A stretch of 64,000 bases of DNA from an uncultured delta proteobacterium (GTDB lineage Bacteria; Myxococcota_A; Polyangia; Haliangiales; Haliangiaceae): contig CAWKDB010000010.1 of assembly GCA_963848295.1 (NCBI GenBank), forward strand, positions 704,001 through 768,000, in the 5' to 3' direction. Made by a program: the position numbers and the translations under genes. Under the pieces are notes generated by a model that saw only the letters and a program-made list of their open reading frames with translations, searched no databases and was not told the origin of the DNA. This document shows positions 21,783-28,169 of this stretch, in pieces (within the stretch, counting starts at the first letter, position 1; every line of letters begins with the position of its first letter).

Positions 21783-23035
21783 AGCGAGACCTCCGCGGCG
21801 AGCTGCGCGCGATCGTTCGCGAGCTCGCGCCCCGGTTGCTCGTCGACGTGGGTCAGCTCGAGCTGCAATCGCATGCGCAATCGTGGCACGCCGAGCACCG
21901 CGCCGATCGTGTGCTCGATCACGCGGTCGGTCGTGATCAGGCTCGACGGATCGAGGATGCCGAACCGATAACCGACCGCGACCGGCAACGCGGCGGGAAT
22001 TCGAACCATCGCCTGGGCGTGCGCGCCGTACGCGTCTTGCGCGGGCCCGCCGGTCGTGTCGAACGTCGTGTGCTCGGCGACGAGCCCGCCGCCGAGCGAC
22101 ACCGGCCCCAGGCCGAGCTGCGCTCCGAACGCGCCCTGGTAGTCGGTCTCGTCCTGGCGAAACGGCAGCGCACCGATCGTGCGCGGGTTGTAGCGCCCCG
22201 ACGCGACGAGCCACGAGTCGTGCGGCAGGCGGAGCAGCGCGGTCGCCGACAGTGCGAGCGAGTTGTTGTCGTTGTTCGACGAGAACTCGTCCGCGCCATT
22301 CTGCGCCGCGACCTCGAACCCGAACCGCGCGCCCGAGGTCGGCACTTCGGGGTCGAGCCGGATCGCCGCGCCGATCGATCGGCCCGGCGGCAACCCCGGC
22401 GTCTGGTAGCCCTGGGTCGGCAGCACGCCGCGGCTCTCGATCGGCCGGTCGACGAACGCGCGCGACGTATCCGGAATCTGCGCCTCGGGATCGACGAGCG
22501 CCTGGAAGTAGCCGCCGCGGCCGGTGACGTCGCCCGCGATCCGGGCGTCGACGTACGCGTCGCGCAGGCCGACCGCGATGTTGCCCTGCGGCGAGTTGAT
22601 CTGCGTGCGCTGATCGACCGCGCCATCGAACGACACGACGAACGCCGCGATGTTCCCGAGCTTGCCGCGGGCGCCGACGCGCGCGTTCTGCAGCTCGAAG
22701 CCGTCGTCGCGGCCGATGTACTCGACGTTCGGATCGGCCTGGATCGCGATGTACTGCAGCCGGATGAAGCCGAACGGCTGCCACGAGAATCCGGTCGCCG
22801 GCGCGACCGGCTCGGGCGGCGGGCGGTTCGCCTCGCTGTTGGCCGGGACGCGTTCGGCCGGCGGAACGGCCGGGGCCGGCGCGGCGTCGCCCGGCTTCGA
22901 CTCGTCGCTCGGAGGCTGCGTCTCGCCTACCGGCGCGGGCGCGACGGGCCCCGCCGGTTGCGCGGCGACCATGCGCGGAACGAGCAGCGCGGCGCCGAGC
23001 ACGGCGCCCTTGAACAGATGGCGTTGTGCGATCAC
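21779..23035 (-). CDS. Outer membrane porin (OprO/OprP-like)
   Basis: Signal peptide, Pro-rich linker, GFELQNARVGARG, LRDAYVD, amphipathic beta strands. Confidence 0.75.
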   Translation of the reverse strand: MIAQRHLFKGAVLGAALLVPRMVAAQPAGPVAPAPVGETQPPSDESKPGDAAPAPAVPPAERVPANSEANRPPPEPVAPATGFSWQPFGFIRLQYIAIQADPNVEYIGRDDGFELQNARVGARGKLGNIAAFVVSFDGAVDQRTQINSPQGNIAVGLRDAYVDARIAGDVTGRGGYFQALVDPEAQIPDTSRAFVDRPIESRGVLPTQGYQTPGLPPGRSIGAAIRLDPEVPTSGARFGFEVAAQNGADEFSSNNDNNSLALSATALLRLPHDSWLVASGRYNPRTIGALPFRQDETDYQGAFGAQLGLGPVSLGGGLVAEHTTFDTTGGPAQDAYGAHAQAMVRIPAALPVAVGYRFGILDPSSLITTDRVIEHTIGAVLGVPRLRMRLQLELTHVDEQPGRELANDRAQLAAEVSL

Positions 23036-23192
23036 GTGGCGTCGAGCGTAAACGCAACGCCGCGTGCGGAGCGTGGCGCTGGCGTGAAATCGCCGCTCTT
23101 TAGAGGTTCATGATTCGCCTCGTGCTCAACGCAGCGGCGGTGTCGTTAGGCCGGAGCGAACCAATCGCGAGCGAGCGGCCGCAGCGGGGTCG

Positions 23193-23324
23193 GGTGTTCA
23201 ACGCGATGCTCTCGGCGGCGCGGCCGATCTCGTCGGCGAGCGACTTGCGGCGCGAGCGCAGCTTCGGCTCGATCGGGGCGAGCTGTTCGAGGACGGTGAG
23301 CGATTGAGCGAGGACATCGAGCAT
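23193..23324 (-). pseudogene. Truncated four-helix-bundle protein (paralog of 23957-24280)
   Basis: MLDVLAQSLTVLEQLAPIEPKLRSRRKSLADEIGRAAESIALN aligns with the first ~44 aa of the intact copy, then similarity stops. Confidence 0.75.
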
Positions 23325-23353
23325 GGCGTGGCCTTTCGTGGATGAGCGGACGC

Positions 23354-23542
23354 CCGACTCGCCGGGGCCGTCTCGCCCCGTCGCGCCGCACTCGCGCCGG
23401 CGCCGTGACGAGCGCGGGCACAGATCTCCGCACGCGTCGGTCGATCCAACTCTGCGGCGGCCGCTCGCAGGCGTCGGTGGTCCCCGGCGCTCGGCGCGGC
23501 GCTGGCGCGAAGCGGCGCAGGGCGACGGCCCCGGCGAATCGG
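23354..23542 (-). ncRNA. Candidate structured RNA/hairpin element, copy A1, upstream of the truncated four-helix-bundle gene
   Basis: 19-bp basal stem CCGAUUCGCCGGGGCCGUC/GACGGCCCCGGCGAGUCGG with a G-U pair on the minus strand; inner blocks shared with copy A2. Confidence 0.55.
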
Positions 23543-23562
23543 AAGCCGCGAGGGCGAAAGCT

Positions 23563-23706
23563 GGCGACGGCGGCGGCATCGGCAACGGCATCGGCAACGG
23601 CATCGGCGACGGCTACGGCGACGGCTACGGCTACGGCTACGGCTACGGCTACGGCTACGGCTACGGCGTCGGCGTCGGCGTCGGCGGCGGCTACGGCGAC
23701 GGCGGC
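23563..23706 (+). repeat. Hexamer array, 24 units of GGCNNC (mostly GGCTAC)
   Basis: Read directly from the sequence. Confidence 0.95.
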
Positions 23707-23738
23707 GGCTTTAGAACCCTCGATGCTCCTTCGCTCGC

Positions 23739-23935
23739 GCCGATGGGCGGAACGTCTCTCTCGCCCTGCGCCGCTTCGCGCTTGTCCCGCGCCGAGCGCC
23801 GAGTGCGCCGGCGCCTGCGATCGATCGCCGCGGAGTTGATCGGCCGGCGAGGGCGGTGGCCAGCGCCCGCGCTCGTCACGGGACCCGCGCGACTGCGGCG
23901 CGACGGGCGAGAGAGAGACGTTCCTACCCATCGGC
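23739..23935 (+). ncRNA. Candidate structured RNA/hairpin element, copy A2, upstream of the intact four-helix-bundle gene
   Basis: Basal stem GCCGAUGGG.GGAACGUCUCUCUCGCCC / GGGCGAGAGAGAGACGUUCC..CCCAUCGGC; inner blocks shared with copy A1. Confidence 0.55.
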
Positions 23936-23956
23936 CACTCACTTCGGAGGATCACC

Positions 23957-24280
23957 ATGTCGTTCTACGCCCTCGACTTCGCCCTCGCCGTCCTGCAGCA
24001 GCTCGCCCCTGTCGAGGCCAAGGTGCGCCGCACGCGCAAGTCACTCGCCGACGAGATCGCCCGCGCCGGCGAGAGCGTCGCGCTCAACCTCAGCGAAGGC
24101 CGCATGCGCGTCGGGCTCGATCGCCCCGACTTTTATCGCCGCGCCGCCGGCAGCGCGAGCGAGCTCACGACCGCCCTCCTGATCGCGCGCGCCCGCGGCG
24201 TCATCACCGCCGAGGACTTCGCGGCGGTCGACGAGCCGCTCGACCACGTCCGCGCGATCCTGTGGCGGCTCACGCACTGA
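23957..24280 (+). CDS. Four-helix-bundle protein (23S rRNA IVP / Avd-like fold)
   Basis: 107 aa; LADEIARAGESVALNLSEG...FYRRAAGSASE matches the family pattern (L.DQ..RA..SV..N.AEG...A.GS..E); GGAGG SD upstream. Confidence 0.88.
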   Translation: MSFYALDFALAVLQQLAPVEAKVRRTRKSLADEIARAGESVALNLSEGRMRVGLDRPDFYRRAAGSASELTTALLIARARGVITAEDFAAVDEPLDHVRAILWRLTH

Positions 24281-24393
24281 GCTTTCGCGCCGGCCAACTG
24301 ATTTCGGCACCCTTCGCGCAAAGCGCACGACGGTGCGAAGCGGCCGGCGACGCCAGGCGTAAGCGGGCTGTCGGCGCCAGAACGTCGCCTCGC

Positions 24394-24529
24394 GGCTACG
24401 GCAAACGGAGACGGACACGAATACGGATCCGGCAAACGGAGACGGCTACGGCAAACGGATACGGATACGGATACGGCGAACGGCTACGGCTACGGCTACG
24501 GCTACGGCTACGGATCCGTCCACGGCCCC
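24394..24529 (+). repeat. Degenerate hexamer/heptamer array (GGCTAC, GGATAC, GGAGAC, GGCAAAC), about 22 units
   Basis: Read directly; same orientation as the 23563-23706 array. Confidence 0.9.
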
Positions 24530-24549
24530 GGCCGCTGCTCAGAGACGCG

Positions 24550-26403
24550 TCAGCGGCGCCGGCGGCGGCGGACCACGAACCCGATCGCAAGGACGATCGG
24601 CCACAGCGAGGCTGGGTGCCCCACGCTGCACGAGTAGTAGCTCTTCTCGCCTCCCGGCCCACTATCCGAGCCGGTGTCCGAGCCGGCGCCGTCACCGGTC
24701 AGCGCCACGCTCGCGGTGCCACCATCGTAGTCGACCATGAACGTCGCGCTCTCGTTGCCGACCTCTTGCGCTTCGAACACGACGAGCCAAGTGGCTGCGC
24801 CGTTCGCGGGGATCTGCGCTTGATCCGGCGTCGCGACGATCGCGAACTCGCTCGCGTTCGGGCCGACGATCCGCGGATTGCTCGTCTGGATCGCGGTGGT
24901 CGAGCAGTTCGACAAGTTGATCTGCTGGCCGATCGTCGTGGTCTGGACCGGCGCGACCCCGAAGTAGACCGAGTCTGGGCTCGGCGTCACGCCCGCATCG
25001 AGCGCTTCGACCGCGAGTGCGATCGTGTCCGGCGCGCCACCCGGAATATCGGTCGTGACCGTCACCTGGGACTGCACCGCGCCCACCGCGGTCGGCGCCG
25101 CGATCACATCGAACGTCACCATGTTCGCGCCGTCGCCCGCGACCGAGGCCGGCAGCGTAGGCGGCATCACCGTGAACGGCGCGTCGGGCGTCGACAGCGC
25201 ACTGATCACGAACGAGCCGTCGGCGTCGCCGATCACGGTGAACGTCTGATCCTTGGTTTGGCCGGCGCACACCGGGCCGAAGTCGACCATCACGTCGGGG
25301 TTCACCGACATCGCGGTCGCGAGCGCCTGACCGGTGACTTGCACCGTGCGCGTCTGGCCGCCGTCATAGGTCGCGATCAGCGAGCCGGTGACCGACTCGG
25401 CCGTGCTCGCCGCGAACGAGACCTGCGCGTTGGCCGCGCCGCCACCGGCGGCGAGCACGGTGCCCGCAGCGGGGGCACTCATCAGCGTCATGTCGGTGCC
25501 AGTGAACGTCACGCTCTCGAGCGTCATCGACGCGGTGCCGGTGTTCGACAGATCGATCGTCTCCATCAGCGGCTCGCCGACGCGGGTCGTCGGGATCGTC
25601 GCGGGGCTCGGCGCGATCGACAGGTTCGAATCGATCCCGTTGCAGCTCAATGGCAGCGTCACGGTCGGGTGCGTCGGATCGTTGGACGTCACCACGAAGC
25701 TGCCGCTCATCCCCCCGGTCGCGGTCGGCGCGCACTCGAGCATGTACGGCTGCGACGAGCCCGGCGCGACGTTGTAGGCGCCGGTCGGGCCCGACGTGAT
25801 CGTGAAGCCGGCGGACGCGGTCACCGAGCTGACGCTCAACGTCGAGCCGCCGAGGTTGGCGACGCTGATCCCGACCGGCGTGCTCACCGTGTTGCGGCGG
25901 ACATCGCCGAACGCGATCGATCCCGGCGACACGCTGATCTCGATCGGCGGTGCCATCCCGGTGCCGGTCACCGAGAGTGTGGTCGACGATGTCGAGCCGG
26001 TGACGTAGATCGTGCACGCGATCGTCCCGACGACGTTCGGCGTGAAGGTCGCGGTGAACGAATACGTGTCGTATTCGTCCGGGATGCACGCGACCGGACA
26101 CACCGTCTGCGGGGGACCGGGACAGCCGACCTCGCAGGTCTCGTCGACCAACGCCGGCAAGCCCGGCGCGTTGACCGTGAACGCGCCACAGCTCGACGAG
26201 ATCGCAGTGATCAAGTCCGAGCTCGCCGCGCCACCGGATGGAGAGATCGTGATCGTCTGAGGCGGTGACGATTGCCCGATCAGCTCGGTTGGAAAGGTCG
26301 GGCTGGTGACCTTGATCAGGTACTCGGCAGTCTCCGACTCCGAGGGCACGCCCTGGCAGGCGCCGAGCACGAGCAACCCGAGACACAAGTTGGACCGCCG
26401 CAC
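24550..26403 (-). CDS. Surface protein with tandem PapD/ASH-like Ig domains (choice-of-anchor-D-like) and MYXO-CTERM-like tail
   Basis: Lipobox LVLGAC; repeated xFGxV...NxGxxxL domains; tail SYYSCSVG..LWPIVLAIGFVVRRRRRR. Confidence 0.85.
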   Translation of the reverse strand: MRRSNLCLGLLVLGACQGVPSESETAEYLIKVTSPTFPTELIGQSSPPQTITISPSGGAASSDLITAISSSCGAFTVNAPGLPALVDETCEVGCPGPPQTVCPVACIPDEYDTYSFTATFTPNVVGTIACTIYVTGSTSSTTLSVTGTGMAPPIEISVSPGSIAFGDVRRNTVSTPVGISVANLGGSTLSVSSVTASAGFTITSGPTGAYNVAPGSSQPYMLECAPTATGGMSGSFVVTSNDPTHPTVTLPLSCNGIDSNLSIAPSPATIPTTRVGEPLMETIDLSNTGTASMTLESVTFTGTDMTLMSAPAAGTVLAAGGGAANAQVSFAASTAESVTGSLIATYDGGQTRTVQVTGQALATAMSVNPDVMVDFGPVCAGQTKDQTFTVIGDADGSFVISALSTPDAPFTVMPPTLPASVAGDGANMVTFDVIAAPTAVGAVQSQVTVTTDIPGGAPDTIALAVEALDAGVTPSPDSVYFGVAPVQTTTIGQQINLSNCSTTAIQTSNPRIVGPNASEFAIVATPDQAQIPANGAATWLVVFEAQEVGNESATFMVDYDGGTASVALTGDGAGSDTGSDSGPGGEKSYYSCSVGHPASLWPIVLAIGFVVRRRRRR

Positions 26404-26520: not shown

Positions 26521-28169
<1,649 letters not shown>

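Follow-up and report, generated by a model that had tools for sequence, protein, structure and literature searches.

The window, that is the whole stretch of 64,000 nucleotides that was analysed, carries between two host genes a divergent pair of small genes, A and B, each headed by a long hairpin leader and accompanied by arrays of short repeats, together referred to here as the cassette (Table 1). G000 denotes the genome of the window and all other G-numbers the genomes compared with it. The first-pass annotation described two divergent paralogs, one intact and one truncated, and so they are: gene A encodes a whole protein of 107 aa, and of gene B 43 codons are left, past which (the homology ends at 23195) the sequence is unrelated; the other nine B copies are intact. 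The GATT(C/T)CGGCACCC motif of the A trailer is present 3' of B genes too. Neither a sigma-70-like promoter nor an intrinsic terminator was found in 23000-24700. Contigs from three DNA sequencing runs cover pieces of the element and its flanks.

Table 1. Features of the cassette locus, in window coordinates
Feature	Position	Strand	Remarks
Left flanking host gene, 418 aa	21779..23035	-	Kept in 77/91 genus genomes; outside the element
Whole insert: divergent cassette pair and arrays	23091..24553		11 bp instead in the sister genome G112
Sequence of unknown origin in place of the gene B 3' half, its trailer and the left array	23091..23194		
Gene B remnant, 74-codon frame	23100..23324	-	Homology to intact 106-aa B proteins: first 43 codons, 23195-23324
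Leader hairpin B, 189 nt	23354..23542	-	Conserved core 23488-23502 pairs with 23400-23414
Central hexamer array	23563..23710	+	Mostly CGGCNN units, gene-A strand
Predicted anti-Shine-Dalgarno segment	23722..23729	+	Partner 23946-23953; long-range pairing 0.93
Leader hairpin A, 197 nt	23739..23935	+	Core 23784-23798 pairs with 23870-23884
Gene A, 107-aa four-helix-bundle protein	23957..24280	+	PF05635/TIGR02436, Avd/XCC0516 fold
3' trailer, in part common to A copies	24281..24392	+	
Right hexamer/heptamer array	24397..24515	+	Orientation as in the central array
Right flanking host gene, 629 aa	24550..26439	-	3' end abuts the insert

The cassette proteins are conserved members of PF05635

Protein A scores 45.3 bits against PF05635 (cut-off 33.8) and 45.4 against TIGR02436 (cut-off 24), the intact B proteins 50.4 and 47.5 against the same two cut-offs. 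The predicted model of protein A (pLDDT 96) has four helices and TM-scores of 0.83-0.88 to 2GSC, 2RLD and 4DWL (XCC0516, BT0352 and Avd, respectively), the value for Avd being 0.83 at 11% identity. The Avd/IVP-like four-helix bundle that had been proposed was thus recovered both by family scores over cut-off and, according to the model, by the fold of Avd. Three sources describe the IVP/TIGR02436 family as functionally uncharacterised apart from Avd of DGRs (10.1101/2024.02.27.582315; PMC10053308; PMC4990558), and Avd itself is described as highly positive (PMC6182149). The pI is 8.2 for protein A, which is barely basic, and 10.0 for B. The cassette proteins are under purifying selection, dN/dS being 0.16 over 10 A genes and 0.12 over nine B genes, and the closest named records that carry the protein are mostly Kofleriaceae/Haliangiales assemblies. 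Two PF05635 genes of other subfamilies in G000 (C8:9516-9824 and C10:3043690-3043905) each lie between short inverted hexamer runs.

The leaders share a covarying core and are tied to the family genes

Hairpin A folds at -143.2 kcal/mol (z -9.0) and hairpin B at -144.5 (z -8.4), and in either case none of 200 shuffled sequences was equally stable. As first described, a long hairpin precedes each gene, ending 21 nt (A) and 29 nt (B) from the ATGs at 23957 and 23324; all five inner blocks named at the time were found in both hairpins, and the basal stems, though unlike in sequence, are both paired and both carry a 2-nt bulge after GGGC. Among the leaders at large, too, basal stems pair using family-specific sequences.

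The fetched loci gave 94 gene matches, 47 of them with both core motifs ~80 nt apart and full flanks, and the leader alignment comprises 22 sequences from 12 genomes. Since leaders were chosen by both core motifs, it follows from the choice itself that these motifs are invariant among the aligned sequences. The core, which in leader hairpin A has a covarying 5-bp stem and a conserved 4x4 loop, offers a test in that the stem beside the motifs was not selected for, and it shows 11, 12, 4 and 2 double changes at four positions. Over the core 97.4% of the cells pair, with 37 double changes as compared to 10.1 in shuffles, a test whose outcome kin inflate, related genomes being non-independent samples; slid controls reached 7 at most. 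Neither the ~80-nt central domain nor the basal stems, which were misaligned, yielded a consensus structure, and a 4-pair 5' hairpin in this part of the alignment was dropped. The spacing of the core motifs is held near 80 nt, the loop reads GCGC/TCAC in 23 of 41 rows, and mismatches and one-sided bulges are kept where the proteins are 35-42% identical. A shorter leader class has a weak leader-model score and a similar core.

A covariance model of the leader, for which 150 of about 33,000 candidates in G000 were scored, gave 23 strong matches in this genome, all 23 of them at family genes (five are training sequences), and a weak match at C10:859046 (E 0.15). In a class-wide draw under strict filters, with 20 candidates scored per genome, matches were obtained in five of six other genus genomes and in none of 114 genomes outside the genus. 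When leaders were sought ahead of genes in four genomes outside the training set, 15 of 18 matches were followed by a family gene; two of the remaining three stand at a contig edge just after a Shine-Dalgarno (SD) sequence and ATG, and one is solo and truncated. The conserved structure is therefore, as had been supposed, tied to the gene: its core covaries and its matches lie almost always at family genes. Comparison with Rfam, which had been proposed as a check, revealed no known RNA among the leaders, i.e., no match at gathering score, the best in the window having an E value of 3.4 and six other loci giving none.

Two loci of G049, from another family of the class (L025 and L067), have hairpin leaders of different sequence with a similar core and SD pairing, L067 being a weak match to the model. 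At L019 (G021:C539) a close family gene, 64% identical, lies between inverted arrays and is devoid of any leader.

Strand preference and pairing of the ribosome-binding site

A G-U pair thought to favour the coding strand is indeed present in the B stem, but over the leaders there is no significant G-U bias. Outside the conserved loop 37 leaders contain 43 G-U and 34 A-C mismatches (p 0.36; per leader 17 vs 7, p 0.06), a count from which four of 41 rows were left out (one false match and three opposite-strand rereads) and in which one row comes from the unpublished G010; in 22 extended arms the numbers are 65 and 76. The opposite strand gave the better fold in 18 of 22 leaders, and the bottom strand as DNA has a strong predicted fold (z -8.0). 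On the coding strand the conserved loop has the form C-A/CxU, which becomes U-G/A-G on the opposite one; mismatches in the leaders are pyrimidine rather than purine (79 vs 7), and of the bulged bases 207 nt are in the 3' arm as against 50 in the other.

In hairpin A the predicted pairing runs on past 23935, onto the SD site. By folding prediction, and with two leaders that have no SD dropped, the SD pairs with a segment far upstream in 15 of the 26 long leaders (15 of 17 in the close clade, none of nine distant ones) and in all 12 short ones; in control genes such pairing was found in 11 of 70 and 13 of 70 at the two distance cut-offs. The B copy of the window has a weak SD lock (0.12). The autoregulatory leader that the first-pass annotation gave as its alternative gains from these predictions, in which the ribosome-binding site is paired in many copies. 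At L285-L294 of G095 the partner genes have short leaders, in which the start codon as well as the SD is drawn into the hairpin pairing.

The copied unit is a divergent gene pair

G000 contains 10 divergent A+B pairs, one variant pair, one single copy and one fragment, hence 11 paired loci, usually in the order array, gene B, leader B, array, leader A, gene A, array. Relative to the proteins of the window the A copies are 91-100% and the B copies 67-70% identical. All 12 full-gene loci lie between protein-coding ORFs, save for one side of the single copy where no ORF was called, and six of the 11 paired loci stand between convergent genes, as compared with 18% of adjacent ORF pairs according to a crude caller (p 0.006). 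The genes neighbouring cassettes are unrelated among loci; gene labels such as valS and romR are putative readings of the sequence. Repeated at 11 paired loci, gained and lost, the cassette behaves as the non-autonomous module that had been suggested. A discrete ~190-nt RNA as the mobile unit is not supported, since what is copied extends over both divergent genes and the array between them.

Of 91 genus genomes 65 have family matches, and the number per genome ranges over 0-24, tallies that take in short-leader types and the unpublished G010 and G075. Among the least fragmented assemblies the numbers are 22 (G000), 24 (G095), 13 (G108) and 0 (G011), the last consisting of three contigs, 93% complete, with no family match at E 1e-20. 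All 10 loci fetched from G095 (of 24 matches) are divergent pairs of a long and a short type; copies that are 99-100% identical have the central array in common, while the outer ones agree at first and differ further on; one array continues into a further leader. At L039, L093, L228, L233 and L241 the cassette pairs are convergent, their 3' ends adjoining or overlapping, and such pairs are repeated as units in G026, G025, G089 and G090 too.

Repeat arrays

At the 10 pairs all 30 arrays read CGG on the A strand, mostly as CGGCNN units. Positions 1-3 are the anchor by which the phase was set; position 4, which lies outside the anchor, is C in 92%, and in G000 positions 5-6 vary and are depleted of C. 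A DGR-like A-to-N origin of the units fitted G000 but was rejected, as G095 varies at other positions. Rejected as well were a coding function of cassette arrays, for which no consistent frame was seen, and their origin as duplicated targets, the left and right arrays of a locus being no more alike than arrays of different loci (p 0.48); the similarity of middle and right arrays, one of the three comparisons tested, gave p 0.014.

Of the G000 arrays of at least 100 bp, 20 of 35 lie within 1 kb of a cassette gene. The other 15 (e.g., C10:224647, C10:3810855 and C11:383261) are of the same CGG-phased hexamer kind, and so is an array at 27767-28029 of the window. Many cassette-free arrays apparently lie inside coding sequence as Pro-X or Gly-X linkers, and several have counterparts in G112. 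The outer arrays at L285-L294 exceed 700 bp, and one consists of (GAC)n.

Gain, decay and recombination

Empty sites, which the first-pass annotation had advised to seek in relatives, do exist. At the window site the sister genome G112 has 11 bp and no array in place of 1,463 bp, between flanks that are 91% and 88.5% identical (L114:1393-1405). The cassette is absent from G112 at loci c and f as well, f keeping a coding array; loci d, e and h have a different neighbour there, broken remnants are found at b, at i and at the fragment locus, and among the 1,410 contigs of G112 no intact family gene was found. This comparison is without loci a and j and the single copy, and the site of the variant pair is unassembled across there. 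As G112 has remnants elsewhere, its empty sites may be deletions, and the window site may reflect either a gain in G000 or a loss in G112; 28 more distant genomes have other neighbours at this site, and at locus f an orthologue was found in G112 only.

Locus i is more informative. Of 87 genomes matched, the best 30 supplied 28 outgroup loci, and in none of these is there a family gene in the 1.5 kb downstream; in eight of them (one from the unpublished G010) both flank genes are likewise arranged, 13-89 bp apart, with no array between them, while G112 retains a remnant of 175 bp. From the outgroups devoid of the unit and the remnant in G112 we conclude that this copy was gained before G000 and G112 split and then collapsed to 175 bp. 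Cassette-free sites are mostly without an array (the window site and locus c in G112 and the eight outgroup intervals at locus i), which argues against long arrays as landing pads that were present beforehand. None of the loci compared showed the junction of a fresh insertion.

The four-gamete test fails in 525 of 1035 informative site pairs of A and 600 of 990 of B, failure is rarer for neighbouring sites (permutation p <0.001), and the distances of A show no correlation with those of B (Mantel r 0.02). The cassette copies are therefore recombinant mosaics that exchange short tracts with one another.

No partner enzyme emerged

The mobilising enzyme that was to be encoded elsewhere, an RT or HUH enzyme co-occurring with the cassette, did not turn up. 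RVT_1 matches are found in 79 of 91 genus genomes; those in G000 are of group II intron type, one being intact, and no retron-type RT was found in this assembly, which is 85% complete. The RTs checked in G095 (one of its two), G108 (both of two) and G011 (one of two) are retron-like, all below curated cut-offs, and the high-copy genomes checked have no RT class in common. Eight of 12 assemblies that have no RT match carry family genes, these assemblies being incomplete. Among 99 ORFs neighbouring cassettes (107 picked heuristically, less eight that were family genes or overlaps) there are no RT, one Y1_Tnp and one HTH_Tnp, and none of the nine Y1_Tnp matches of G000 is at a leader match. Most genus genomes contain RT matches of one class at E 1e-20 to 1e-24. 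A long GC-rich element upstream of Y1_Tnp (RAYT-like) genes of G000 (L050-L055 and C10:261800) is common to three of the six read.

Comparison with known systems

REPINs with their RAYT transposases and MITEs are non-autonomous, intergenic, often located at gene 3' ends and arranged as inverted doublets. The cassette shares these features, and yet it has conserved protein genes, almost no gene-free hairpins and no visible terminal repeats: inspection by eye of the 10 A+B loci, also in comparison with the G112 sites, showed neither terminal inverted repeats nor a target-site duplication, CTAGCG being present on both sides at one locus. The gene downstream of the hairpin is no RT, unlike in a retron, and the leader model gives at most 19 bits on four retron-like loci vs 110-136 on cassettes. 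Repetition of hairpin-like sequences in a myxobacterium has a precedent in the reported msDNA-like dispersed repeats of Nannocystis exedens (cited in PMC6868368), whereas each hairpin of the cassette heads a gene.

The ORF-bearing IVS of 23S rRNA encode S23p/IVP (PMC4990558), and IVP ORFs are also reported in rRNA insertions of CPR (10.1101/2024.02.27.582315). The cassette resembles them in its PF05635 protein, in looking selfish, patchy and prone to decay, and in a long stem tied to the ORF; unlike them it lies between protein genes outside rRNA, in many dispersed copies as divergent pairs with hexamer arrays, and its stem closes upstream of the start codon instead of surrounding the ORF. With Avd and the Sp RNA of DGRs (10.1101/2023.10.23.563531; PMC6182149) it shares the fold and an adjacent structured sequence with bulged bases. 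It differs in the ~190-nt hairpin 5' of the gene, in variation that is recombinational, and in that no DGR RT was found and a TR/VR pair seems to be lacking, to judge from array variation that has no adenine pattern across the two genomes G000 and G095. By the tests applied the cassette is no IVS, DGR, MITE, REPIN or retron; by analogy, it may work like an IVP-bearing selfish element freed from rRNA.

Discussion

The cassette is real, conserved and apparently undescribed in the literature searched, in which no published account of the leader or the cassette was found; supplements, a possible home of motif catalogues, lie outside that search. We favour, with a probability of roughly 40%, a selfish two-gene cassette that is copied as DNA via its arrays and whose protein binds its own leader. 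The main reason for copying as DNA is a unit that extends over two divergent genes, is devoid of visible terminal repeats, ends inside arrays and recombines constantly. With no RT class common to the high-copy genomes checked, and with divergent pairs copied in their entirety, spread at the DNA level is preferred over an RNA intermediate. The unit would spread by recombination or template switching within the flanking CGG-phased arrays. As empty sites are mostly array-free, short seeds would need to expand into arrays while the cassette is copied or later. Avd is reported to insert flipped-out bases of a stem-loop between protomers (10.1101/2023.10.23.563531). The leader of the cassette keeps fixed bulges, and by analogy the Avd-fold protein may bind these bulges and the loop, perhaps as a ring-shaped oligomer that grips flipped-out bases. 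Binding would likely control the translation of the protein itself, as the predicted SD pairing suggests, and the protein would either assist copying, e.g., by holding or annealing single strands, or just limit its own expression. The weak points of this explanation are the array-poor empty sites, the SD lock lacking in nine of nine distant long leaders, the unfixed strand and a protein A that is barely basic as compared to Avd.

A mobile element that dispenses with enzymes altogether, in which a ring of the Avd fold, itself non-catalytic, would attach to its own hairpin and favour strand annealing or template switching in the CGG-phased arrays, so copying the cassette, shuffling the copies and growing host arrays, seems doubtful to us. 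If spread needs no encoded enzyme, genes would have a means of multiplying that is not yet listed, repeat arrays of myxobacterial genomes would have a possible origin in it, and the widespread orphan TIGR02436 family would, if the enzyme-free reading is true, have a general function. This orphan family now comes with a candidate ligand that shows covariation, with naturally occurring loss variants and with gains that have been dated, and with a defined candidate ligand the binding partners of stand-alone Avd-like proteins become a simple binding and reporter question.

A passenger of retro-mobility, whose protein would coat the leader RNA and, like Avd, recruit an RT encoded elsewhere to copy the cassette, with the arrays as slippage tails, is in our view improbable. 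Avd is reported to act together with bRT (10.1101/2023.10.23.563531), the fold is shared, RVT_1 matches are frequent in the genus, the outer arrays vary in a tail-like manner between 99% identical copies, and a separate four-helix family of G000 has pieces of group II intron joined on. Against this, divergent pairs are copied whole, the RTs of G000 are only group II-type while those checked in G095 and G108 are retron-like, G011 has a retron-like RT and yet no family match, family genes are present in assemblies that have no RT match, no RT is among the neighbours, and the array positions that vary are not the same in G000 and G095, in contrast to adenine-specific mutagenesis. Still less probable are single-stranded DNA signals, with the hairpins recognised in trans by a host HUH (RAYT-like) or other transposase and the inverted pair being REPIN- or MITE-like. 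The strong fold of the bottom strand as DNA, the missing strand bias, the bulges concentrated in one arm, the Y1_Tnp matches of G000, CTAGCG on both sides of one locus and a sister four-helix family with terminal inverted repeats would suit such signals; they are at odds with A+B loci that show no terminal repeats or consistent target duplications, with leader matches that lie at family genes and never at Y1_Tnp genes, with the single Y1_Tnp and HTH_Tnp among the neighbours, and with the SD pairing, which points to mRNA.

Purifying selection, the SD lock and the presence of the family in 65 of 91 genus genomes could equally be expected of an autoregulated nucleic-acid-binding protein that serves the host, its leader being just a translational switch and its copies multiplying passively. 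A copy number of 0-24, the lack of matches in the nearly complete G011, a sister genome with broken copies only and unrelated neighbours make such a host function about as hard to credit as recognition by a transposase. Very unlikely, finally, is that the perfection of the hairpins is a mutational by-product of template switching between inverted arms, with no selection on a folded molecule. Such switching is reported to be able to make inverted repeats perfect in this manner (PMC7202029), and mirror expansions of short motifs in the basal stems as well as the near-equal numbers of G-U and A-C are compatible with it; but it should erase mismatches and one-sided bulges, and precisely these persist at 35-42% protein identity, with the spacing held near 80 nt.

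Other four-helix elements of G000

A second four-helix-bundle family of G000, which has no long leader and is flanked by inverted hexamer runs, was found at C2:271083-271394, C2:797188, C10:3467581, C10:2647165, C10:4056361, C10:3175866, C2:436753 and C10:261253. Its ends, of which 14 were found, are ~15-bp terminal inverted repeats, mostly followed directly outside by CTAG; targets of 10-12 bp seem to be duplicated, and the family is presumably IS4-like. In three cases group II intron ends are inserted exactly at the terminal repeat of this family, there is an internally deleted mini-intron, and intron pieces are fused inside the four-helix ORFs, the sites concerned being C2:797061, C10:3467987, C10:2116767, C10:2647165, C10:4056361 and C2:436753. 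A gene-free version of the family, 75 bp long, lies at C10:4408270-4408344.
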